From Alphaproteobacteria bacterium (GTDB lineage Bacteria > Pseudomonadota > Alphaproteobacteria > GCA-2731375): a stretch of 64,000 nucleotides of DNA. The position numbers and the translations under genes are program-made. This document shows positions 1-48,826 of this stretch, in pieces. Location of the stretch: contig CBDDBZ010000033.1 of NCBI GenBank assembly GCA_965225945.1, positions 160,001-224,000 of the forward strand, written 5' to 3'. Position 1 is the stretch's first letter; the number at the start of each line of letters is the position of its first letter. The notes under the pieces are model-generated. The model was not told where the DNA came from. It searched no databases and saw nothing but the letters and a program-made list of their open reading frames with translations.

Positions 1-344
1 GAAAACCAGTTCACAGAGCTATTTGTGAATAATCCGGCACTCGAATCCTACAATTCAATGAAGCTCTGATTTCCTGGAATATTCCATCGGTGTCGTTCAC
101 CTCCGATTTCAGATAAATTTCAATGAAGTGACGGTCCTTTATGCAACGTGGCGTTTTGCCAAATCCGACTCAATGATTAGGATTTCCACCACGCTAAAGT
201 GTCGCCTAAAAGGCGCTACAATGCCGTCCGAGTCCCTGCTCGGCATCGCCGGAGATATCTCCGCTTCGACCTGCACCGAGCTTTACTCAGGAAAATGGGT
301 GCACACTACATATAGTGGGTGTGGGTGATAACCGGATAGGCAAG
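1..344 (+). mobile_element. 755-bp non-autonomous TIR cassette, copy 1 (right part only; left part lies outside the window)
   Basis: Matches 30227-30570 and 43007-43350 by eye. Ends in the 43-bp TIR CACACTACATATAGTGGGTGTGGGTGATAACCGGATAGGCAAG (302-344). Confidence 0.95.
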
Positions 345-24371: not shown

Positions 24372-27171
24372 GCTTGTGTAGCGTGAGGTCTGGAAATTTG
24401 GCTTCGCCCCGCGCCGGGGTATACCCCGGCGCGGGGCGATCCGTCATTTTGGTTATCCATGAAAGCGTCCAAACAAACATGGAGAACCAGTATGCGGAAA
24501 GACCAGGATAGCGCTGTCGAGGCTTTGGTGGAACAATTGATCGAAGGCGGTAGCGAGAACATGGCGACGGTCGGCGATGTCCCGCCCAATGTTGAAAAGT
24601 GCGAGATAGGCATCGTCTGATCGAGAGGCTACGCGGCCACCTCGATGTCTTCAATGACGGACTTTGCTCCGGCCTTTCTCACCGCCTCCCGCAGGGCGGC
24701 GTCAAGGACGGGGAGCTGGCGGTAGGCCTTGAGGCGGCGGAAGGTCTTTTGCGCCTCCAAGAGGCCGGCGGCGGTCCAACGCAGCGCCATCTCGGCGTTG
24801 CGCCAGCGCTTGACGTTCCGCTGCACCGTCCGGACGGTGCCGATCGCGTTCTCGATGGCGTTGGTGCAAGCCAGCGAGTGTCGAAGTTGCGGCGGGAGGC
24901 CGAGCCGGATCACGGTCAGGATCTCGTCCAGGCCCTCCAGGATCGAGCCCGAGACGCCGGGTGCGTCATGCTCCAGACGGCGGGCGAGGTTGCGCAAGAG
25001 CCGTTCGGCCTTGGCCGCGTCGTCCTGCTGCCAGGCCTGCCGCAAGACCTTCCTGACGCCGGCATGGAGGCTCTCGTCCAGCCGGTCCGTGATGTTGCGC
25101 CCCTTGTGCACCTGGCAGCGCTGGAGGGCCGCCGCCCGCCCGAAGGTCCGCCGGATCGCCTTCGAGAGCGCCTTGGCGCCGTCGACGATGTAGAGCCGAG
25201 GCCGTTCGGGATCGAGACCGCGCTCGATCAGGTTGTCGAGCATGGCTTGCACCGTGGCCGCGTTCTCCGTCGCGCCCTCGGCCAGGCCCAGCACGTGCTT
25301 CGCGCCGCCGGTGTCGATGCCGATCGCCGCCACCATCAGGTGATCGCCGACATGGAGCCCGTCGATCTGGAGCACCACGAGATCGAGATCGTCGAGCGGG
25401 CTCGCCAGCCAGGCCTTCAGCTTGCTTCGCGTCAACGCCACGAAACGGCGCGAGACCGCCGACTTCGAGGTTGCGTCACCCGATGCCGCCGGCAGATCGC
25501 CGCCCGCATCGTCCGGCAGGCGCACCGCGCGGGCATACTTGCGGGTCGAGACGTTGATCACCATCAGATTCATCGCCCAGGCTTGCAAGAGTTCGGGTTC
25601 CGACAGCAGCTCCCAACTCGGCAGGCTCATCTCCCGACCCGCGAAGTCCCGCACCCGAGGGCGCTCGACCTTCACTTTGCCGCCGTGGTAGGCGATCTCG
25701 CTCCGGGTCGTGCCCCATCGATGGCCCTTGCGCTCGCCCGAGCGGGCGTGGCGCGAACCGCACAAGGCTTCCGCGTCCGCCGACATCATCTCGTTCAAAG
25801 ACTCGAGGCCCGCCAAAAGGCAGAAGCGATCGACGCTCATGCGCAGATCGTCGAAGGCCTCCGGCATCGATGGCAAGAGCCGACAGGATGGTTCCGAGGA
25901 ACGGTCGTTGCGTGTAGTCTTGGTCATGGCGTCGTTCTCCTTGATGGAATCAGCACCCAGAGCCTAGCGGCTCCAGGCGGACGACGCCTACTTCAGCTTT
26001 TCAACAGAGCCCGGGACATCCCCCGACGGTCTTCGCCGGCCTTTTCAATCTCGCCATGCGGATCGAGCGGGAGAGGTTCTTGGGCGCCGGCCACTATGAG
26101 CGCACGCCCGAGCGGCGGGGATACGCCAACGGCACCAGACCCAAGAAGATCGACACCCCGGCCGGTACGGTGAGGCTCGAGGTTCCCAAGACCGCCGGTC
26201 ATGAGGCGCCTTTTTACCCCCAAGCCCTGGAGCGCGGACGGCGCTCCTGCCGCGCTGTCATGCTGGCCGTGGCGGAGATGTATATCAAAGGCGTCTCCAC
26301 CCGTGACGCCGAGGCGGTGATGCGCGAGTTCGGCCTGGAGAGCCTGTCGTCGAGCCAGGTCAGCCGCGCCGCCAAGCTCTTGGATGGGGAGCTGGATGCC
26401 TGGCGCAACCGGCCGCTGGGCGAGATCCGCTACCTGCTCCTCGACGCGCGCTATGAGAAAGTCCGAGAGGGTGGCGTGGTGCGCGACGCCGCCGTGCTCT
26501 CGGTGATCGGCATCGGCCCCGACCAGCGCCGCCGGGTGCTCGGTGTTTCCTGTGCGCTCTCCGAGGCCGAAGTGCACTGGCGCGCCTTCCTGGAGACCCT
26601 GGTTGCCGGTGGCATGCGCGGTGTCGCCTATATCGTTTCCGATGATCATCCAGGCCTCGGCGCCGCGCGCAAGGCCGTCCTCGGCGGCCGCCGTCTGGCA
26701 GCGCTGTCAGTACCATCTGGCTCAAAACGCCATCCATCACGCCCCCAACCTCGCCATCCGAAAGGCCATCGGCAAGGAGCTGCGCCGGGTCTGGAACGCC
26801 GCCGACAGCAAGGCCGCCGGGGCCGAGCTGGGCCACCTGGTGGCGGCCTACCGCGATAGCGCCCCCAAGCTCGCCGATTGGCTGGAGGCGGCGATCCCCG
26901 AGGGCCTCGCCGTCTTCGCCCTGCCCGAGCGCCACCAAAAGCGCATGCGAACCTCGAACCCCATGGAGCGATCCATCCAGCAGGAGATCAAGCGCCGCAC
27001 CGTAAAGGTCAGGGTCTTTCCCAACGAGGCCTCGCTCGAACGCCTGGTCACCGCCATCCTCGTCGAAATCGACGATAAATGGGAAACCACCGAAAAACCC
27101 TACATCACTTGGAAAGCAGAGGATGACTGATCAACGGCGTTCCGAATTTCCACACATCAGGTTGCTCAATC
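24372..27171 (+). mobile_element. IS256-family element A, copy 1, interrupted by IS256-B and frameshifted at about 26688
   Basis: Near-identical to 39534-40873 (inverted). Ends GCTTGTGTAGC / GTTGCTCAATC. Mutator-type transposase (LLDARYEKVR, QRCQYH, RTSNPMER). Confidence 0.92.
24573..26023 (-). mobile_element. IS256-family element B, copy 1 (transposase 25927-24629)
   Basis: IRs GGCGATGTCCCG / CGGGACATCCCC. 8-bp TSD CGACGGTC (24565-24572, 26024-26031) inside the 5' end of the IS256-A gene. Motifs IDGL, IVDGAKAL, QRCQVHK, TNAIEN. Confidence 0.95.
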
Positions 27172-29645: not shown

Positions 29646-29815
29646 CGAGCCCGGGCGCCCTCGACGCGCTGGTGGTGCGCGAGGCGGCGTGAGGTTGGCA
29701 AATTTTCGGTCTATCGAGAGGGAGTAGCCCTCTGCTTAAAGGGATTCGCCTGCAAGCGAGCGCACGTATTCGAGCGCCTTCCGCGCCGGAAGATAGTCCG
29801 GCTCATGGGACAGTG

Positions 29816-30570
29816 CTTGCCTATCCGGTTATCACCCACACCCACTATATGTAGTGTGTCTCCTTGGACTGCAGGCAAGGGCCGGCGCAGGCGCATTGAG
29901 GAGGCGATCCGGCTAATTCTTGATTGTTCTGAAAACCGAACCGGAGTTTAATTCACGTCACGTACTTAACATCGGGGGACGGAACGGTGGCGACCAAGGG
30001 AAAAACGAAGAAACCCACGGCCAGACGGGAAGCTGCTGATGAAACGACATCGTCTGAGCGATTGACGGCACTAGTCGAAGAAAGCGACGCGCTGGCACGA
30101 ATCGTTGCGAAGAACCCGTCCGCGCCTGTTAGTCTCCTGCGCGTTTTGAGTCGCAGCGAAGACGAAGCGACACGCAAGAACGTGATCCTCAATCCGTTTA
30201 CTTCATATGACGTATTGAGCGAACTTGAAAACCAGTTCACAGAGCTATTTGTGAATAATCCGGCACTCGAATCCTACAATTCAATGAAGCTCTGATTTCC
30301 TGGAATATTCCATCGGTGTCGTTCACCTCCGATTTCAGATAAATTTCAATGAAGTGACGGTCCTTTATGCAACGTGGCGTTTTGCCAAATCCGACTCAAT
30401 GATTAGGATTTCCACCACGCTAAAGTGTCGCCTAAAAGGCGCTACAATGCCGTCCGAGTCCCTGCTCGGCATCGCCGGAGATATCTCCGCTTCGACCTGC
30501 ACCGAGCTTTACTCAGGAAAATGGGTGCACACTACATATAGTGGGTGTGGGTGATAACCGGATAGGCAAG
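29816..30570 (+). mobile_element. 755-bp non-autonomous TIR cassette, copy 2
   Basis: Perfect 43-bp TIRs; 8-bp TSD GGACAGTG (29808-29815, 30571-30578). Confidence 0.97.
29987..30295 (+). CDS. Cassette passenger ORF, 102 aa, leucine-rich-variant (LRV)/HEAT-like repeats
   Basis: VAKNPSAPVSLLRVLS, VILNPFTSYDVLSEL and FVNNPAL follow the LRV pattern (A.NP..P...L..L). Identical in all complete copies. Confidence 0.6.
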   Translation: MATKGKTKKPTARREAADETTSSERLTALVEESDALARIVAKNPSAPVSLLRVLSRSEDEATRKNVILNPFTSYDVLSELENQFTELFVNNPALESYNSMKL

Positions 30571-31229
30571 GGACAGTGCACGCTCGAAGGCGCGTTCGAC
30601 TTTCTCGATCAGCCCTTGTCTCAACAAGACCCAACCCATGTTGAAGTGCGGGAACTGGTAGCAGCAATAGCGCTTGGCCCGGATCGCCTTCTCGAACCAA
30701 GGGATGGCCTCCTCCGCCCGCCCCAGAGTGATCAGATAGGCGCCGATATCGTTATAGGGATTGCCGTAATCGGGATCGATCGCTATGGCTTTCCTGCATT
30801 CCTCTATGGCTTCTTCGGTCTGACCCTGATGGCTCAGCGACCAGCCGAGGTAGGTATGTCCTTCCGCGGTCGGGCTGGCGTCGATCGACAGGCGGAAATG
30901 GCGCGCCGCAGCCTCGTACTGCCCCTGCAAGTGGAGAACGTATCCCTTTTGCCAGTAAAGGAAGGCGGCGCCCATTTTCGTGCTCTCGTCGGGACTGTCC
31001 CGGGGCGCGGCGTGGCCCATCGTGACCCCCATGAGGATCGCGATGGCAAGTAGGATGCTTGTCCGATACGGTCGACGCACGAGTCTCTGTTCCAGTCTCG
31101 CTAACGACACTCGGCAGTTTACCGCACACTGCCACCCGAGGTCACCGCCATTGCCCTCCGGCCCCTGGTCATGTGGCGGCGGTGGATGTTGGTCGAGAGG
31201 ATGTAGGCCACGGGATCGGGGCCGCGGCG

Positions 31230-34887: not shown

Positions 34888-34968
34888 AGCCAATACTTTC
34901 CATTCGACACTTCTAATGTATCGGTGTGCCTCGACCATCTGAGGTCGCTATTCCTGTGTCTGTTCAGC

Positions 34969-35723
34969 CTTGCCTATCCGGTTATCACCCACACCCACTA
35001 TATGTAGTGTGCACCCATTTTCCTGAGTAAAGCTCGGTGCAGGTCGAAGCGGAGATATCTCCGGCGATGCCGAGCAGGGACTCGGACGGCATTGTAGCGC
35101 CTTTTAGGCGACACTTTAGCGTGGTGGAAATCCTAATCATTGAGTCGGATTTGGCAAAACGCCACGTTGCATAAAGGACCGTCACTTCATTGAAATTTAT
35201 CTGAAATCGGAGGTGAACGACACCGATGGAATATTCCAGGAAATCAGAGCTTCATTGAATTGTAGGATTCGAGTGCCGGATTATTCACAAATAGCTCTGT
35301 GAACTGGTTTTCAAGTTCGCTCAATACGTCATATGAAGTAAACGGATTGAGGATCACGTTCTTGCGTGTCGCTTCGTCTTCGCTGCGACTCAAAACGCGC
35401 AGGAGACTAACAGGCGCGGACGGGTTCTTCGCAACGATTCGTGCCAGCGCGTCGCTTTCTTCGACTAGTGCCGTCAATCGCTCAGACGATGTCGTTTCAT
35501 CAGCAGCTTCCCGTCTGGCCGTGGGTTTCTTCGTTTTTCCCTTGGTCGCCACCGTTCCGTCCCCCGATGTTAAGTACGTGACGTGAATTAAACTCCGGTT
35601 CGGTTTTCAGAACAATCAAGAATTAGCCGGATCGCCTCCTCAATGCGCCTGCGCCGGCCCTTGCCTGCAGTCCAAGGAGACACACTACATATAGTGGGTG
35701 TGGGTGATAACCGGATAGGCAAG
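34969..35723 (-). mobile_element. 755-bp non-autonomous TIR cassette, copy 3 (inverted; passenger ORF 35552-35244)
   Basis: 43-bp TIRs; 8-bp TSD TGTTCAGC (34961-34968, 35724-35731). Confidence 0.97.
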
Positions 35724-36029
35724 TGTTCAGCTTCGCTAGACTTCGCCCATGTCCGAGGGTACGCAGCGCAGGCTAGCGGCGATCGTCTCCGCCGACGTGG
35801 TCGGTTACACGGTGCTCCGTGGTCGCGGGAGGGTCGTGGTGGAGCCGGCCGTCTGAACCATCAGGGTGCCGGATGGGCGGACAGATTGAGCCAGCGAATC
35901 AGGTGGGATCCCGGGTACGTCGGGAATTGGGGGTGAACTCTCCGTCGCCAGGCCGTGCCATCCACGCCCGGGTATAGCCATGAGGCGACGCGCATAGATT
36001 CTTCGCTGGCTGTTCGCTAAAATCGGCGC

Positions 36030-39533: not shown

Positions 39534-40873
39534 GATTGAGCAACCTGATGTGTGGAAATTCGGAACGCCGTTGATCAGTCATCCTCTGCTTTCCAAGTGA
39601 TGTAGGGTTTTTCGGTGGTTTCCCATTTCTCGTCGATTTCGACGAGGATGGCGGTGACCAGACGTTCGAGCGAGGCCTCGTTGGGAAAGACCCTGACCTT
39701 TACGGTGCGGCGCTTGATCTCCTGCTGGATGGATCGCTCCATGGGGTTCGAGGTTCGCATGCGCTTTTGGTGGCGCTCGGGCAGGGCGAAGACGGCGAGG
39801 CCCTCGGGGATCGCCGTCTCCAGCCAATCGGCGAGCTTGGGGGCGCTATCGCGGTAGGCCGCCACCAGATGGCCCAGCTCGGCCTCGGCGGCCTTGCCGT
39901 CGGCGGCGTTCCAGACCCGGCGCAGCTCCTTGCCGATGGCCTTTCGGATGGCGAGGTTGGGGGCGTGATGGATGGCGTTTTGAGCCAGATGGTACTGACA
40001 GCGCTGCCAGACGGCGCCGCCGAGGACGGCCTTGCGCGCGGCGCCGAGGCCTGGATGATCATCGGAAACGATATAGGCGACACCGCGCATGCCACGGGCA
40101 ACCAGGGTCTCCAGGAAGGCGCGCCAGTGCACTTCGGCCTCGGAGAGCGCACAGGAAACACCGAGCACCCGGCGGCGCTGGTCGGGGCCGATGCCGATCA
40201 CCGAGAGCACGGCGGCGTCGCGCACCACGCCACCCTCTCGGACTTTCTCATAGCGCGCGTCGAGGAGCAGGTAGCGGATCTCGCCCAGCGGCCGGTTGCG
40301 CCAGGCATCCAGCTCCCCATCCAAGAGCTTGGCGGCGCGGCTGACCTGGCTCGACGACAGGCTCTCCAGGCCGAACTCGCGCATCACCGCCTCGGCGTCA
40401 CGGGTGGAGACGCCTTTGATATACATCTCCGCCACGGCCAGCATGACAGCGCGGCAGGAGCGCCGTCCGCGCTCCAGGGCTTGGGGGTAAAAAGGCGCCT
40501 CATGACCGGCGGTCTTGGGAACCTCGAGCCTCACCGTACCGGCCGGGGTGTCGATCTTCTTGGGTCTGGTGCCGTTGGCGTATCCCCGCCGCTCGGGCGT
40601 GCGCTCATAGTGGCCGGCGCCCAAGAACCTCTCCCGCTCGATCCGCATGGCGAGATTGAAAAGGCCGGCGAAGACCGTCGCCATGTTCTCGCTACCGCCT
40701 TCGATCAATTGTTCCATCAAAGCCTCGACAGCGCTATCCTAGTCTTTCCGCATACTGGTTCTCCATGTTTGTTTGGACGCTTTCACGGATAACCAAAATG
40801 ACCGATCGCCCCGCGCCGGGGTATACCCCGGCGCGGGGCGAAGCCAAATTTCCAGACCTCACGCTACACAAGC
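39534..40873 (-). mobile_element. IS256-family element A, copy 2 (ORF 40720-39575)
   Basis: Inverted copy of 24372-27171 without the IS256-B insert. Codon 5 from the upstream ATG is TAG here and CAG in copy 1. No TSD. Confidence 0.93.
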
Positions 40874-41622
40874 CTCCTTTGCCGATGAGGACGGTCTGCA
40901 CCGCCGTCTTCATGTTGTCGTAGATGCCTCGCCGGCAGGCACCCTGGAACAGCCGGAATGCCCGGTCGTGGGCGTCGAACACCATCTCCTGGCTCTCGCG
41001 CGGATAAGCGCGGACGAAGAACATTCGGCTGTGGCACAGCCGGACGTGCGCGACCTTGACCTTGGTCGTCACCCCCGCCAGCACCACGTACTCGTGGCTC
41101 CAGTCGAACTGATAGGCCTCGCCCGGCGAGAACACCAACGGCACATAGGTCTGCGCCGTCGATGCCGAACGGCGCCACCGCCACGCCTTGGCGTAGCGCC
41201 GCACCGCGTCGTAGCCGCCGCCATAGCCCAGACCCTCGAGGGCTTCGGAGATCCGTAGCAGCGTCAGCCGCTCCCGCTTCGACTTGGTCTCGTTGGCCTC
41301 CAGCATCCGCTCCAGCTCGGCCGTCCACGGCCCCAGCTTCGGCATCGGCTGGACCCGCCGGTCGTAGGTGAACGCCGTCGCCTGCGAACGGATCACCTTG
41401 CGCACCGTGTTGCCCGAGACCTTCACGTCCCGCACGATCTCCTTGATCGGCTTCCCCTTGACAAAATACTCCCGCCGGATCCGCGCTATCGTCTCCACGA
41501 CCAACATCCCCCACCACCTCGTCCGCCCAAAAACGAGGTGACTTGGACTAGCCAGGCTCAGGGGGTCAAATTTGGACGCCGATCACCCCTCAACAGGGGT
41601 CAACTTTGCACGCCGTTCCACA
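40874..41622 (-). mobile_element. IS21-family element, copy 2 (5' part of istA only)
   Basis: Near-identical to about 28314-29062; truncated by IS256-A. Confidence 0.9.
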
Positions 41623-42595
41623 CCCAGAAGGAGATGCCCTGTTTGGCGCAGGTCTTCATGAGGCCGAGGAAGGCGTCGCGGGCCTCGCGGCCGGCCTCGG
41701 ATCGGGTGCCGCCGGAGATCTTGCGGCGGGTCACCTGGCAGCGGATGTCGTTCTCCGAGCCGTTGGTGTTGAGCGGCACCTCGGGGCGCTCGAGCACCAG
41801 CAGCAACTCTTCCTTGTTGCCATGGAGCCGGGCGAGCAGGCGATCGAGGGTGGCGAAGCCGGTGCGCCTGGTGAAGATATCGTCGAAGCGCCGGCGAAGC
41901 TCGCGTCTTCGTCGCCGGCGCGGGTCTTCGCGGTAGGCCTTGGGGTCCGCGTAGAGCCACCAGATCCGGGTCCGGATCCGTTCTTTCGCTTGCGCCTGCG
42001 CCTGAGTGAAACAATCCAGCTTATGGACCAAGCGCTCGGCGTGGACCCAGCAGAGCGCGTGATGGCCGACGTTGAACTGGCCGGCGTCGTCGCTGAGGAT
42101 GACGCTGTCTTTGAGCAGGCCGTGGTCAGTAAGGGAGCCCCAGAGCGCGCCCTCGGTGGCGATCTTGACCGGATCGGGCTGGACCTCGAGGTCCGTGATC
42201 CCCAAGGCCTTCAGGTGGCTCATCCAGATCCTCTCGTCGGCAAAGCGGCGCACCCGGGCCGTTTCCAAACGGGCGACGAGGGGGCCGGCGAGACGGCGTT
42301 CGCGCATGTAGGCCAAGGCCGCGTCATTGACCAGGTAGTCTTCGTGACCGGCCCGCAGCAGTTCCAGGAAGTTCCGCCGTCTCTTGGAAAAGCCGGTGGC
42401 GAACCAGGCGAAATGGTCGTTGCCGATCTGCGTGCACACGCCGTTGCGCGCCCGATGGCGGGCGCCGGTGTCGTCCACGCTGACCCAGGCCGCGGTCTCC
42501 AGGCCGGCGCGCAGAACCGCGCCCGCCTCGCCGGTGAAGCACGCCTGGTCCTCGTTCAGGAGCCGCATCACCTGGCGCTTGGAGATCGCCACCCC

Positions 42596-43350
42596 CTTGC
42601 CTATCCGGTTATCACCCACACCCACTATATGTAGTGTGTCTCCTTGGACTGCAGGCAAGGGCCGGCGCAGGCGCATTGAGGAGGCGATCCGGCTAATTCT
42701 TGATTGTTCTGAAAACCGAACCGGAGTTTAATTCACGTCACGTACTTAACATCGGGGGACGGAACGGTGGCGACCAAGGGAAAAACGAAGAAACCCACGG
42801 CCAGACGGGAAGCTGCTGATGAAACGACATCGTCTGAGCGATTGACGGCACTAGTCGAAGAAAGCGACGCGCTGGCACGAATCGTTGCGAAGAACCCGTC
42901 CGCGCCTGTTAGTCTCCTGCGCGTTTTGAGTCGCAGCGAAGACGAAGCGACACGCAAGAACGTGATCCTCAATCCGTTTACTTCATATGACGTATTGAGC
43001 GAACTTGAAAACCAGTTCACAGAGCTATTTGTGAATAATCCGGCACTCGAATCCTACAATTCAATGAAGCTCTGATTTCCTGGAATATTCCATCGGTGTC
43101 GTTCACCTCCGATTTCAGATAAATTTCAATGAAGTGACGGTCCTTTATGCAACGTGGCGTTTTGCCAAATCCGACTCAATGATTAGGATTTCCACCACGC
43201 TAAAGTGTCGCCTAAAAGGCGCTACAATGCCGTCCGAGTCCCTGCTCGGCATCGCCGGAGATATCTCCGCTTCGACCTGCACCGAGCTTTACTCAGGAAA
43301 ATGGGTGCACACTACATATAGTGGGTGTGGGTGATAACCGGATAGGCAAG
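42596..43350 (+). mobile_element. 755-bp non-autonomous TIR cassette, copy 4 (passenger ORF 42767-43075)
   Basis: 43-bp TIRs; 8-bp TSD GCCACCCC (42588-42595, 43351-43358). Removal restores IS66 LSDIGVAISKRQV. Confidence 0.97.
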
Positions 43351-43886
43351 GCCACCCCGATATCGCTGAGCAAGGCCACCAGACGCGCCACCGTGGTCTG
43401 GCCCTGGTGGTAGAGGTCCACCACGAAGCGGCGCAACTCCGACCCGAAGTGGCCCTTCGCCCCCGCTGGCAAGGCCGCTATCACCGTCTCTCCCGACGGC
43501 GTCACCCAGCGTTGCCGGTGGTAGCGCAGGGTATATGGGCGCACCAAGAGATCTTGGACCACGTAGGGCTCGGTGCCCTTGAAGCGCGAGCCCGGCGGAA
43601 CCTCGGCCACAAGGATGCGCTCCTCGTCGATACGCAGCCGCGCGTTCTTCTTGCCCCGGCGGGCCTGTTGGCGCCGTTCCTTGGTCTTGCGTCGTTCGGC
43701 CGCCTTCTTCTCCATGCCGCTCGGCTTGATCTTGGGCCGCCCCTTGAGCCCTTTCAGCCGCGCGATCTCCTCGCGCAAGGCCGCGTTCTCCACTCGCAGA
43801 CGCGCGACCTCCTCCAATTGCCGGAGCACCAACCGCTTGAGGTCGTCCAGGCTCAGGGCCTCAATATCCGGGAGCGATTCGGCCAT

Positions 43887-45337
43887 GGGGATGTCCCGGG
43901 CTCTGTTGAAAAGCTGAAGTAGGCGTCGTCCGCCTGGAGCCGCTAGGCTCTGGGTGCTGATTCCATCAAGGAGAACGACGCCATGACCAAGACTACACGC
44001 AACGACCGTTCCTCGGAACCATCCTGTCGGCTCTTGCCATCGATGCCGGAGGCCTTCGACGATCTGCGCATGAGCGTCGATCGCTTCTGCCTTTTGGCGG
44101 GCCTCGAGTCTTTGAACGAGATGATGTCGGCGGACGCGGAAGCCTTGTGCGGTTCGCGCCACGCCCGCTCGGGCGAGCGCAAGGGCCATCGATGGGGCAC
44201 GACCCGGAGCGAGATCGCCTACCACGGCGGCAAAGTGAAGGTCGAGCGCCCTCGGGTGCGGGACTTCGCGGGTCGGGAGATGAGCCTGCCGAGTTGGGAG
44301 CTGCTGTCGGAACCCGAACTCTTGCAAGCCTGGGCGATGAATCTGATGGTGATCAACGTCTCGACCCGCAAGTATGCCCGCGCGGTGCGCCTGCCGGACG
44401 ATGCGGGCGGCGATCTGCCGGCGGCATCGGGTGACGCAACCTCGAAGTCGGCGGTCTCGCGCCGTTTCGTGGCGTTGACGCGAAGCAAGCTGAAGGCCTG
44501 GCTGGCGAGCCCGCTCGACGATCTCGATCTCGTGGTGCTCCAGATCGACGGGCTCCATGTCGGCGATCACCTGATGGTGGCGGCGATCGGCATCGACACC
44601 GGCGGCGCGAAGCACGTGCTGGGCCTGGCCGAGGGCGCGACGGAGAACGCGGCCACGGTGCAAGCCATGCTCGACAACCTGATCGAGCGCGGTCTCGATC
44701 CCGAACGGCCTCGGCTCTACATCGTCGACGGCGCCAAGGCGCTCTCGAAGGCGATCCGGCGGACCTTCGGGCGGGCGGCGGCCCTCCAGCGCTGCCAGGT
44801 GCACAAGGGGCGCAACATCACGGACCGGCTGGACGAGAGCCTCCATGCCGGCGTCAGGAAGGTCTTGCGGCAGGCCTGGCAGCAGGACGACGCGGCCAAG
44901 GCCGAACGGCTCTTGCGCAACCTCGCCCGCCGTCTGGAGCATGACGCACCCGGCGTCTCGGGCTCGATCCTGGAGGGCCTGGACGAGATCCTGACCGTGA
45001 TCCGGCTCGGCCTCCCGCCGCAACTTCGACACTCGCTGGCTTGCACCAACGCCATCGAGAACGCGATCGGCACCGTCCGGACGGTGCAGCGGAACGTCAA
45101 GCGCTGGCGCAACGCCGAGATGGCGCTGCGTTGGACCGCCGCCGGCCTCTTGGAGGCGCAAAAGACCTTCCGCCGCCTCAAGGCCTACCGCCAGCTCCCC
45201 GTCCTTGACGCCGCCCTGCGGGAGGCGGTGAGAAAGGCCGGAGCAAAGTCCGTCATTGAAGACATCGAGGTGGCCGCGTAGCCTCTCGATCAGACGATGC
45301 CTATCTCGCACTTTTCAACATTGGGCGGGACATCGCC
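43887..45337 (+). mobile_element. IS256-family element B, copy 2 (transposase 43983-45281)
   Basis: Same 1451-bp length and identical protein to copy 1; 9-bp TSD TTCGGCCAT (43878-43886, 45338-45346). Confidence 0.95.
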
Positions 45338-45548: not shown

Positions 45549-45837
45549 CTACCTTGGACGAGCATCATATCCATCTGGGAGCCCTTGCCTCAATTTGATG
45601 AAGGGCTGGTACTCGATGTCGCTATGCCAGGCACGGGCGGCCTCCATATTAGGAAATTCGATAATATTGATGGCCGTGATATCTGGCTGCGTGCCTTCCA
45701 ACATCTCCCACGGCGAGTTTCTTGCGCGCGCAAGGTAGCGTCCCCCATGCTTCGCGATCAATGCCGCCACGGGATCCTTGTAGTCTTCTATCCACGATCG
45801 GTCATGCATCTTAAAGACCAACTGCATATGCGACCAT
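45549..45837 (-). pseudogene. DUF1330-family protein with apparent frameshifts at both ends
   Basis: IAKHGGRYLAR...IIEFPNMEAARAWHSDIEYQP. The natural start MVAYAVG (GGAGGG RBS) and tail GSQMDMMLVQG lie in other frames. Confidence 0.75.
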
Positions 45838-45935
45838 GATACCCTCCACCTCTGTGCCGGATCAGATCCTATGTGAGACCAACTGCATATGCGACCATGA
45901 TACCCTCCACCTCTGTGCCGGATCAGATCCTATGT
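45815..45935. repeat. Tandem duplication, 60 bp x2 (period 61)
   Basis: AGACCAACTGCATATGCGACCATGATACCCTCCACCTCTGTGCCGGATCAGATCCTATGT at 45815 and 45876. Confidence 0.95.
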
Positions 45936-45995: not shown

Positions 45996-48826
45996 GGTCA
46001 AGTCCGGATTCTGCTGGGAATTTTCTCCGGGGTTGCCTCCGTCGAGGCCTGTTCTGGTAGTTCCAGCTCGGCTTGGTATTCCTGATCGAGTTCCTTCCTG
46101 ACGGCGTCCATCTGGCGCCGCTCGAAGACGGTGACCTTGACTGCTTTCCATCGCTCGGCGGCGCGGCTCATGGCACCGAACATGAGCTTCAGTACCGCCT
46201 TTTCGCCGAAGGCGTTGGGGATGATCTTCAAGCGCCGGCGCTCCTCCCCGAACAATCTCTCCAGCAGGTTGGTGGTGCGGATCGCCCGGCGGTGATTGAC
46301 CGGCATGCGCAGGTGCGCGATGCAGGCCTCGAAATCATCCAGGAAACAGGCCACCGCCGAGGGCAGCTCGCGCTCCCAGTCACGCACCACGCCCTCGGCC
46401 AGATCGCGGGCGATGGCGCGCGAGGGGGCCTGGTAGGCCGCTTGGGCGCGGGCCTTGAACTCCGGCCAGAGATCCTCGGGCACCTTCGCCGCCAAGTTCC
46501 TCATCCGGTGCGCGAGGCAGCGTTGGCGCGCGCTCCTGGGAAAACAAATGGGGATTATGAATGCTACTTGACGCCCTGCGGGAAATCCGCATGATGGACG
46601 GATGTTTGGAACCGAGGCATCCCTCCCCATTACGGTCAAAGAGGTGGGGGCGGTCGTGAGGCGCTTCTTATTAATGCTCCGCCTGCATCGGTGTCCGTGT
46701 TTCGATCGCACTCTCTTTTGGACGTTCTCATGGAAACTAGCGGATATATTTCGAGTTCTCGAAAGTCCTGACGTCTCTCCTGACGGATTTACGCATAATC
46801 ACTACTTGGCAAAACGAGACGTGGAACGCATCACAGGAACGTTTAACATTGACTGTCCTGAAATAGACGCCGACACGGTAAGGATTTGGCTTCACTATAT
46901 GGCGCTGCTGATTGATTCATGTAAAGACGGCAATCTGAAGGTGGCGAGGAATATTATGAGAGATCCCAATCTGAGATTCAGATCAGATGACTAGACCCAA
47001 CTTCGCCAGCGGCCCAGAGCACGGGCAACAAGACGATGGCCGAATGGAGGGCCGCACAATGACCCGAGGCGTCCCTGTTCTCGACCCGGCGGTGCACCTG
47101 AAGGGTGCGACCCCGGAGAAACTGGCGAAGGCGCTCTTTCGCCGAACCGAGCCGCTACCGCCCCGCGTTGGAAAGCCCGTTGCTGGCGACGAGGTCGCGG
47201 TAGAGAAGGTTTCGACCGACGAGCCGGGCAACAGTGTCCCGCATTTGGGCAAGAGTGCCTGAGTCGCGGATGTTGTGCTTGCCAGCGAACTCCTGGACGT
47301 AACGGTCAAGATGCTTCGGACTGATCTTGTGGAAGGTTCCTTTGTGGGCGCGCTTGAGCATGCTCCAGAAGCTTTCAATACCGTTGGTATGCGCCATGCC
47401 GTCAACGTACTCGCCAACGCTGTGTTTGACGGTTTCGTGGTCGAAAGTCAGCCCCTTATAGGAGCCATGATCGTCCGTGTAGACCTTGGCATCGGACGCG
47501 GCGTGATCCGCGACGAACCCCTGCAATGTCTGGCCATCTGTGTCGTCAACGACACGGGCCGTCACTTTGTTGCTGTCGCGGTCTTTCATACCAACAACGG
47601 CGGTCTTGCCAACTGCACTACGTCCGGTGCCCGCCAACTCTTTGCGCTTGGCCTTGCTCATGTTCTTGCGCTTGCCGCCAAAGTAAGTTTCGTCTACCTC
47701 GACCGGGCCGTCGAAAGGTTCGCCGTTCTCGCCCGCCCACGCTTCACGGATACGGTGCAACATGAACCAAGCTGTAGGCTGGGATACGCCGATATCGCGG
47801 GACAGTTTCATGCTGGCGACGCTTTTAAGGCTGGTAAGGCACAAGTAGATGGCGATGGCCCACTTGCGAAGCGGGACGTTGGAGCGGGCAATCGGCGTTC
47901 CGGTGCGGACGCTGAAATACGACCGGCAGTCAGAGCACCAATAGGGCATCGGTTTGGCGTTCGGGACTTCGCGCGTCCGAACGCTCCCGCACTTGCCGCA
48001 ATGCCGCTCGCCGTCACGCCAGATAACGGACTCGAACCATGCCGTCGCGGCAGCCTCATCCAGGAACATGTCCATGAGCTGGACCAGCGTAACGCCTTCG
48101 CGATGGGCTTTGCCTGGGGCTTTCTGCGTCATGTCCGTGTCTCCCTTCCAACACCTTGGAATATAGGGAGTCAGTCAGCTAATGTCAAGTAGTCTTTATA
48201 ATCCCCTTTCGAACTCGCTAAGGTCGCGCTTGGCGAAGCCGAGGTAGTCCGCCCAGAGCCGCTCCCCCATCTCCGAGACCGCCGTGCGCGACAGCAGCAA
48301 GCGCCCACTTTCTTCCCTGAAGGCATCTTCGATGTCGCGCACCGAGAGACCGCGCGCCAGCATCTCCACGGCTAAATCCTCCAGGCCCTCGGAATGACCC
48401 TTCAGCTGCGCTCGCAGATCCGAACGGAACGGTTCGTCCGTCCCGGCGACCTGCGGCGCCGCATACCTGATCCGCCCCTCGGCCGTCTTCAGATGACCTT
48501 CGCGCGAACCGTTCCGGTAACCTCGGCCAGGCTCGGAACCGTGCTCGTAATAGTCCCGGCCCAGGGCGTCGCGCACCTCGGCCTCCAAGCCTTCCTCGAT
48601 GATCAACCGCGTCGCCAACCGCACCAATTCACTCTTCGCGTCGACCACGCGGGCGCGCCCTTCGATCAGGTCGTTCAAGGCTTCACGCGTGCGCTCGCTT
48701 CCGGGTAGTCTCTTCGTCATGGAGGTGCCTCCTGTGCTGGGCTGGCGCGCAGCCATGCCCGGGTGGGAATCGACACCTCGAAGGATGCACCTCCTACCAA
48801 ATTCCCAGCAAGTCTAGGACTTCACC
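45996..48826 (-). mobile_element. IS256-family element C, interrupted and partly deleted by IS1595
   Basis: IRs GGTCAAGTCC..TGCTGGGAATTT / AAATTCCCAGCA..GGACTTCACC; flanking repeat TCGAAGAT (45988-45995, 48828-48835). N-part 48720-48207; C-part 46549-45998 (RQRCLAH, RTTNLLER). Confidence 0.88.
46550..48206 (-). mobile_element. IS1595-family element (ISNwi1-like ends; transposase 48132-47155) with passenger ORFs 46602-46994 and about 46987-47262 on the + strand
   Basis: IRs GGGGATTAT(N5)CTACTTGAC. Zn-finger CGKC..CSDC; motifs VEVDETY, YTDD, HTNGIESFW. Confidence 0.9.

Follow-up and report, generated by a model that had tools for sequence, protein, structure and literature searches.

The window, the whole stretch of 64,000 nucleotides analysed here (positions 160001-224000 of contig C33 in the alphaproteobacterial host assembly G000, which comprises 39 contigs and 6.27 Mb), carries a repeated cassette of 755 bp, of which the copy at 29816-30570 is the main subject of this work. 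An earlier note on this DNA had described four identical copies of the cassette, bounded by 43-bp terminal inverted repeats (TIRs), each complete copy carrying its own 8-bp target duplication, and this description was borne out by a repeat finder, direct reading and reading of the flanks. Three of the copies are whole and copy 1 is cut by the window edge. All four are mutually 100% identical, their 43-nt TIRs are 100% complementary, and the duplications are CCTCGGAC, GGACAGTG, TGTTCAGC and GCCACCCC for copies 1-4, respectively. Copy 2, which equals the consensus of 43 gap-free copies in the genome, is organised as follows (window positions).

29808-29815, unstranded: left copy of the 8-bp target duplication GGACAGTG; the right copy is at 30571-30578
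29816-30570, plus strand: cassette copy 2, 755 bp (repeat finder, direct reading, consensus)
29816-29858, plus strand: left 43-bp TIR, with the tip CTTGCCTATCCGGTT common to the candidate helper insertion sequence (IS) described below and to ISAcr1
29974-29979, plus strand: putative Shine-Dalgarno-like GGGGGA, 7 nt before a GTG start
29987-30295, plus strand: open reading frame (ORF) of 102 amino acids (aa), a single LRV_2 helical-repeat module with a basic, probably disordered N-terminal tail
30459-30554, plus strand: relic of an IS1595-family transposase, its last 31 codons and stop, sharing 71% identity with the C-terminal end of the helper's transposase
30528-30570, minus strand: right 43-bp TIR (repeat finder)

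No transposase coding was found inside the cassette, as had been claimed; the sole Pfam match is to LRV_2 and falls in the 102-aa ORF, and a further ORF of 66 aa, the final 31 aa of which constitute the relic, has none. The stop codon of the relic lies inside the right TIR, and the same arrangement is found in the candidate helper. The cassette is also less GC-rich than its host, in agreement with the earlier reading, with 51% G+C compared with 65% for the window. Alignment of related cassettes revealed that GGGGA- or GGGA-like letters are retained ahead of their start codons. A promoter and terminator scan of the cassette gave one site of each kind, neither above shuffles nor positioned to serve the ORF. 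A palindrome or near-palindrome is present ~29-40 nt from the tips (e.g. 29844-29855) and is conserved in most of the ends compared, in the versions CTACATGTAG at one helper end, CTATATGTAG in the cassette and CTAGGGCTAG at the other helper end; it may represent a candidate protein-binding site.

The other copies, and the genes that are split by copies 2 and 4, are located as follows.

1-344, plus strand: right-hand 344 bp of cassette copy 1, with duplication CCTCGGAC (repeat finder, blastn)
34969-35723, minus strand: cassette copy 3, inverted, with duplication TGTTCAGC at 34961-34968 and 35724-35731
42596-43350, plus strand: cassette copy 4, inside an IS66-family transposase gene, with duplication GCCACCCC at 42588-42595 and 43351-43358
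30571-31110, minus strand: TPR-repeat gene interrupted by copy 2, upstream piece; the final ~26 codons of the gene are at ~29735-29815
41600-42595, minus strand: IS66-family transposase gene interrupted by copy 4, downstream piece; the upstream piece runs from 43359 to ~43880

Excision in silico of the element together with one copy of its duplication gives an intact TPR-repeat gene (Pfam TPR families) at copy 2 and an intact IS66-family transposase gene (PF03050) at copy 4. The proposal that removal restores the frames of two split genes therefore stands for these two sites; at copy 3, no ORF of at least 100 aa runs across the site. The prediction that CCTCGGAC would be read to the left of copy 1 was confirmed as well, as copy 1 is complete in the genome at C33:159590-160344 with CCTCGGAC on both flanks.

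A blastn search of the assembly with the 755-bp sequence gave 58 full-length matches, along with 31 partial ones of at least 150 bp, and 22 of the 58 full copies are 100% identical to the window copy. Chance is ruled out by the exact 755-bp repeats together with these 58 full-length matches. The amplification suspected from four copies in the window is larger in scale, with 58 full copies genome-wide. Among the full copies, 44 are flanked by perfect 8-bp duplications, four by duplications matching at 7/8 positions and one at 6/8, and the remaining nine match at five or fewer. Several of the copies lacking duplications swap flanks with each other, for instance pairs on C24 and on C33, which indicates recombination between copies. 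The 44 perfect duplications revealed the preferred target G-W-T-S-R-A-W-C, with G in 32/44 at position 1, T in 30/44 at position 3 and C in 30/44 at position 8. A or T stands two bases before the duplication in 37/44 cases and two bases after it in 42/44, and the G+C content of the duplications is 48%, compared with 65-67% for the genome.

Older copies, 82-90% identical to the window copy, contain stops and frameshifts in the ORF and have a higher G+C content (0.54-0.58). Two of them (C28:77653-78519 and C29:77331-78160, 82-84% identical) are 75-110 bp longer, with many small G+C-rich insertions, and their shift in G+C from 0.51 to 0.56-0.58 looks like drift to host composition. At C26:1253-3136 (locus L036) the cassette and the candidate helper IS adjoin with one 8-bp unit between them, and GTTCGATC occurs three times (before, between and after), indicating that the first element created a duplication into which the second then inserted. 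The spacing at C32:60181-62048 is similar, again of 8 bp. Gene disruptions and rearrangements in the genome are explained by these dozens of identical 755-bp repeats together with 149 IS1595 transposase-domain matches, which are also a source of assembly breaks.

Empty sites, for which the earlier note had suggested looking, were found for all three whole copies of the window. The segment C19:1-18042 is collinear with window 28340-48722 (~99.6% identical, inverted); all three cassettes are missing from it and a single copy of each of the three 8-bp targets is present. In three of three public DNA runs (X1, X2 and X9), contigs join 29806 to 30570, skipping copy 2, with no flank differences in X1 and one to three in X2 and X9. 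The site of copy 2 therefore exists empty in other samples. For copy 4, the site is likewise unoccupied in four more copies of this IS66-family element (C37, C26, C29 and C24). Two genomes of the same genus (G001 and G002) show no DNA-level conservation of the copy 2 flanks, and the comparison there is uninformative. The distinct duplications, the empty sites and the 22 identical copies among 58 support the insertions as independent and recent, in line with the transposition events originally proposed.

Several observations accompany these data. The 18-kb segment is doubled in the assembly (window 28340-48722 and C19), reflecting a segmental duplication of recent date or else the presence of two strains in the bin. 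In X1, X2 and X9, contig word depth summed across the cassette exceeds flank depth by a factor of hundreds to thousands, well above what ~60-90 copies in a single genome would produce; contig depth is not copy number, and other community members may carry the cassette too. The common cassette variant in these runs has C at 30203, which makes residue 73 a proline (the residue of most relatives), and at 30439 it has C as well. In the RNA run X15, a 729-nt contig of depth 50 spans 29829-30557 with the flanks uncovered; these are multi-copy contig data, by which transcription is not demonstrated.

The candidate helper is an IS1595-family element of 1105 bp, present outside the window in 10 full copies. 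Its ORF encodes 339 aa in seven copies and 348 aa in two, owing to an in-frame insertion, and is truncated in one. The transposase was matched by both Pfam (DDE_Tnp_IS1595, PF12762, 3.3e-37; Zn_ribbon_IS1595, PF12760, 6.9e-14) and NCBIfam (NF033547, 1.2e-56), and is 81.7% identical to that of ISAcr1, the named element nearest to it, which is annotated as 'IS1595-like element ISAcr1 family'. Alignment of five sequences demonstrated that, in the helper, D150, D228/D229, H263, K270, E291 and R298 are invariant and that R295 is R in four of the five (Q in L044), with residues assigned by eye. The first 15 nt (CTTGCCTATCCGGTT) of both helper ends equal those of the cassette, and over its final 108 bp (cassette positions 648-755) the cassette shows 78.7% identity to the transposase-3' end of the helper. 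A census of tips allowing up to two mismatches gave 227 ends in the genome, including 73 exact cassette-left and 61 exact cassette-right ends, 21 and 8 helper ends (plus two variants) and 16 ends from a different IS of 1078 bp with the tip CGTCCCTATC. The resident IS1595 element, its 15 shared terminal bases and the 31-aa relic thus favour the original proposal that the cassette is moved in trans; shared tips, co-occurrence and recent insertions lend indirect support to movement by such a cognate IS.

At seven sites the helper forms derivatives that have the same end on both sides and appear to transpose as units.

C1:44070-45700, C14:57696-59326, C15:7573-9203, C33:95821-97478 and C38:177697-179354: 1631/1658 bp, a full helper copy with an inverted 505-bp piece
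C19:59701-60821 and C34:188810-189930: 1121 bp, a 990-bp piece with an inverted 133-bp piece

Their own duplications are exact in four of the seven, and at C1, C15 and C33 a shift of one base brings the flanks into agreement. It therefore seems that the enzyme can act on two identical ends, the configuration offered by the cassette.

The IS1595-family element inside the window was also considered as a helper and set aside as not the best candidate, since it belongs to a different lineage with the ends GGGGATTAT; the earlier doubt about it was well placed.

46550-48206, minus strand: rejected helper, IS1595-family, ends GGGGATTAT, with a 325-aa transposase at 47155-48132

Searches of public genomes revealed that the same ORF resides in shorter cassettes of 523-546 bp with the tips CGTGCCTATCCGGTT, three of ten with perfect duplications and three more with 7/8, whose hosts are mostly metagenome-assembled genomes of Alphaproteobacteria. 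The 755-bp form corresponds to the short form plus ~210 bp that include the transposase relic. Two loci, L028 and L027, were inspected as possible full ISs combining the ORF with a transposase and were rejected, the former being a cassette interrupted by an IS3-like element and the latter a broken long-form cassette in a Rhodospirillales genome. The ORF was detected at E ≤ 1e-20 in three of 301 genomes sampled across the class, G000 included. Genome G218, of another family, has at least six copies, and the two inspected are 755 bp long, 99.6% identical to the window copy and flanked by their own duplications. The helper transposase occurs at 99% aa identity in G218, with 46 matches, and in G029, also of another family, with 164 matches; at E ≤ 1e-60 neither G001 nor G017 gave a match to it. 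A helper ortholog of 78-81% identity with similar tips is present in four of five short-cassette genomes. In a plasmid collection, none of 11 matching records covers at least 80% of the cassette and only the IS ends match. The 99.6% identical copies and the 99% identical helper in another family indicate horizontal spread, and, judging from these sequences, cassette and helper appear to travel together across family boundaries. The 164 helper matches lie in a single-contig genome of 5.0 Mb; with the 149 IS1595-domain matches of G000, both genomes display extreme IS expansions.

The 102-aa ORF, which starts with GTG, matches Pfam LRV_2 with an E value of 2.6e-8, above the curated cut-off, and has no NCBIfam match. 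A search of 5.8 billion proteins gave 234 relatives at E ≤ 1e-3; among the best 120 of these 234, most are exactly 102 aa long and 74-99% identical, many of them on contigs roughly as long as the element, and 18 aligned relatives have zero indels down to 74% identity. A profile search of 1.84 billion representatives extended the family to 5567 relatives at E ≤ 1e-3. The best of them are proteins of 400-2244 aa with up to 20 tandem modules (Pfam LRV, LRV_2 and HEAT repeats), and the ORF is therefore one unit of a helical-repeat family. The AlphaFold model consists of seven short helices behind a disordered basic tail (mean predicted local distance difference test score, pLDDT, 66.6), and Foldseek gave no match to it in the PDB at E ≤ 0.001, the weak top rows being assorted helical-repeat proteins. 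Comparison of eight cassette ORFs gave ratios of non-synonymous to synonymous rates (dN/dS) of 0.17-0.60 with a mean of 0.28 (28 pairs), and 692/349/966 differences at codon positions 1/2/3; taken together, the two patterns are a protein-coding signature. The ORF is thus a real protein-coding gene under purifying selection in the lineages that spread, with inserted copies decaying neutrally.

Combining the anatomy, census, empty sites and helper co-occurrence, we consider it very likely that the cassette is a real, active, non-autonomous mobile insertion cassette (MIC) derived from an ISAcr1-like member of IS1595 and most likely moved by the resident 1105-bp IS. In this scheme the 339-aa zinc-ribbon and DDE transposase of the 1105-bp IS would recognise the shared terminal sequence and move the cassette, which would insert at an 8-bp site, preferably G-W-T-S-R-A-W-C, and duplicate it. 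The cassette has been active very recently in this lineage and moves between the genomes of different families together with its helper. It represents a clean natural case of a currently active non-autonomous bacterial transposon, with filled and empty alleles, a target preference, an identifiable helper and almost identical copies in genomes belonging to different families.

A number of points weigh against this reading or parts of it. Past the first 15-16 nt the helper ends diverge from the cassette TIR, end B matching at ~30/32 positions and end A showing more differences. Another helper is possible because the 149 IS1595-domain matches come from several lineages, including the 1078-bp IS, although no other candidate fits equally well, and we infer movement by the 1105-bp IS transposase from sequence comparison rather than from experiment. 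The number of copies per cell may be lower than 58, since the assembly is of metagenome type with an estimated contamination of 5.58% and apparent near-duplicate contigs (C19; C1 and C15 share flanks, the IS flanks of the latter two being identical). With regard to the gene, young copies within the genome differ by nine non-synonymous to one synonymous change, where no purifying selection is seen, and the older copies bear the stops and frameshifts described above; the 9:1 variants are neutral decay after insertion. Finally, no cassette was found on the Acidiphilium plasmids on which ISAcr1 multiplies, making it unlikely that the LRV_2 protein is required by such a transposase.

The analysis raises the testable question of why an element devoid of a transposase keeps a small helical-repeat protein under purifying selection. 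Of the answers considered, the one that survives best, and still only as a possibility somewhat short of even, is that the ORF is host-useful cargo, providing LRV/HEAT-like protein-protein contacts, perhaps for life in association with a host, with the cassette spreading and amplifying it. The module is a unit of the very large family described above, cyanobacterial relatives of 43-56% identity are found outside any detectable inverted-repeat element, a run labelled as sponge metagenome contains the unique flanks of the window, and purifying selection between genomes fits such cargo. Against it, dozens of copies per genome would leave selection on any one of them weak, and the protein has no known function, partner or phenotype and no family match in NCBIfam. 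If the gene is cargo, the cassette would be a vehicle that amplifies and spreads a repeat-protein module.

It is less likely, though conceivable, that the LRV_2 protein is an element-level factor that binds the transposase or the cassette ends and biases transposition to the cassette, cassette and IS then forming a two-component system. The ORF is held at exactly 102 aa, with the low dN/dS given above, in cassettes of several genomes, and it takes up most of the 523-546-bp short cassettes. Single copies decay neutrally, as would be expected were new lineages founded solely by copies whose gene is intact, and a basic N-terminal tail on a helical-repeat body is suited to binding. However, selection for host benefit would give the same conservation pattern. 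Moreover, absence or rarity of the cassette does not keep ISAcr1 and the 99% identical helper from multiplying: the plasmid collection holds no cassette and G029, with its 164 helper matches, holds only a partial cassette ORF. An uncontrolled complex prediction for the helper transposase and the LRV_2 protein scored 0.00, the mark being 0.32, and the result counts neither way. In a more specific and somewhat more doubtful form, cassette and IS would be the halves of a split transposon, the 102-aa protein binding the ISAcr1-like transposase or the 43-bp ends and diverting the enzyme to the cassette, which would explain both the intact gene across genomes and the 58 full cassettes compared with 10 helpers.

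The least likely of the three roles considered for the gene is none at all, with the ORF conserved through DNA-level constraint (transposase sites or a structured RNA) or the youth of the copies, and we regard this as improbable. The 9:1 ratio within the genome, the broken old copies and the only moderate confidence of the AlphaFold model are consistent with it. The codon-position differences, a dN/dS below one in all 28 pairs (0.17-0.60), the lack of any indel among 18 proteins down to 74% identity and the LRV_2 match above the curated cut-off argue against it, and an Rfam scan of 29700-30700 gave no match at E ≤ 1.

Even more improbable is that the cassette, as a MIC, is moved by some other resident IS1595 transposase, for example that of the 1078-bp element. 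Apart from the several lineages among the 149 domain matches, this alternative draws on ~18 copies of the 1078-bp IS with 8-bp duplications and on a tip that is the same as that of the cassette at positions 5-16. The tip CGTCCCTATC, however, differs at positions 2 and 4 and the sequence is unrelated past position 16; only the 1105-bp IS has extended similarity to the cassette (108 bp, 78.7%) and a protein relic in it, and it is the 1105-bp IS that accompanies the cassette to G218 and G029. That the copies are assembly or adapter artefacts, for which only the general risk of repeats in metagenome assemblies speaks, is practically excluded by 44 different perfect duplications with exact empty sites, by the same element with duplications in independent assemblies, and by a coherent gene between ends related to a known IS.

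Around the cassettes, the region of 24-48 kb in the window is a nest of IS256, IS66, IS4-like (DDE_Tnp_1) and IS1595 elements. An IS256-family element of 1451 bp occurs twice (24573-26023 and 43887-45337), one copy being located inside an inverted duplicate of another IS256-family gene region (24372-27171 vs 39534-40873), and its empty site shows an 8-bp overlap at 40673-40680. At 45815-45935 a 60-nt unit is repeated perfectly, head to tail, with a single base between its two copies.

In comparison with known systems, the cassette has ends of the IS1595 type. Both ends of the cassette, of the helper and of ISAcr1 begin with CTTGCCTATC, which fits the end pattern nnnGcnTATC that we take to be that of the ISSod11 group of IS1595, and the catalytic signature that we assume for this group, DDHK followed by E-x3-R-x2-R, may fit the D, D, H, K and E-x3-R-x2-R positions of the helper as assigned by eye. 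The ISSod11-group label of the earlier note is thus consistent with the end pattern, apparently with the motifs, and with the 81.7% identity to the ISAcr1-family transposase. PMC8101967 gives an 8-bp target duplication for the IS1595 family, as seen in the cassette (44 of 58 perfect, four more at 7/8). The zinc-ribbon and DDE_Tnp_IS1595 transposase of the family is found in the proposed helper and is reduced in the cassette to the 31-aa relic, and because no transposase is encoded we class the cassette as an IS1595 derivative rather than as an IS. It resembles ISAcr1 of Acidiphilium cryptum, also of IS1595, in its identical first 15 terminal bases, in its 8-bp duplication (ATATATTG for ISAcr1 in pACRY02) and in its 43-bp repeat, which is closely matched by the transposase-3' end of ISAcr1. 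In contrast to the cassette, with its perfect 43-bp ends, relic and unrelated gene, ISAcr1 is autonomous, 1080 bp long and has imperfect ends.

In the literature searched, we found no description of the cassette, no mention of ISAcr1 and no text on leucine rich repeat variants that also deals with transposable elements and their inverted repeats; Siguier et al. 2009, the paper that established the IS1595 family, ISfinder and supplements were outside the scope of this search. The main text of a 2024 survey of MITEs (miniature transposable elements with inverted repeats; PMC11602168) is without IS1595 or passenger genes. Like MITEs, the cassette is non-autonomous, high-copy and homogeneous and has ends in common with an autonomous IS. 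Unlike MITEs, which are usually short and non-coding, it is 755 bp long (relatives 523-546 bp), its ORF of 102 aa is under purifying selection, and the short form is mostly conserved ORF; classification as a MITE was therefore rejected.

The prototype MIC is MIC231 of Bacillus cereus, which is moved by the IS231 transposase. As in MIC231, IS-type repeats flank a non-transposase gene, no transposase is present and mobilisation by a cognate IS is presumed. Unlike MIC231, the cassette belongs to IS1595 rather than IS4/IS231, its cargo is an LRV_2 module, it has reached 58 full copies, and the same gene is conserved across a cassette family in several genomes. As defined in PMC3281130, a mobile insertion cassette has IS-type inverted repeats around a non-transposase gene; the cassette has such TIRs with target duplications, no transposase and a real coding gene. 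A MIC gene should have no part in transposition, whereas the LRV_2 gene might have one. For eukaryotic PIF/Harbinger elements, which have ORF1 and a transposase, PMC2836001 describes a second, non-catalytic element-encoded protein as needed for mobilisation. The likeness is one of logic alone, with no homology; if the LRV_2 protein aids mobilisation, the cassette and its helper would form a bacterial two-protein arrangement of a kind so far mainly described for PIF/Harbinger. The MIC category is already established, and what is uncommon in the present case is the very high copy number together with a gene conserved across the whole cassette family.

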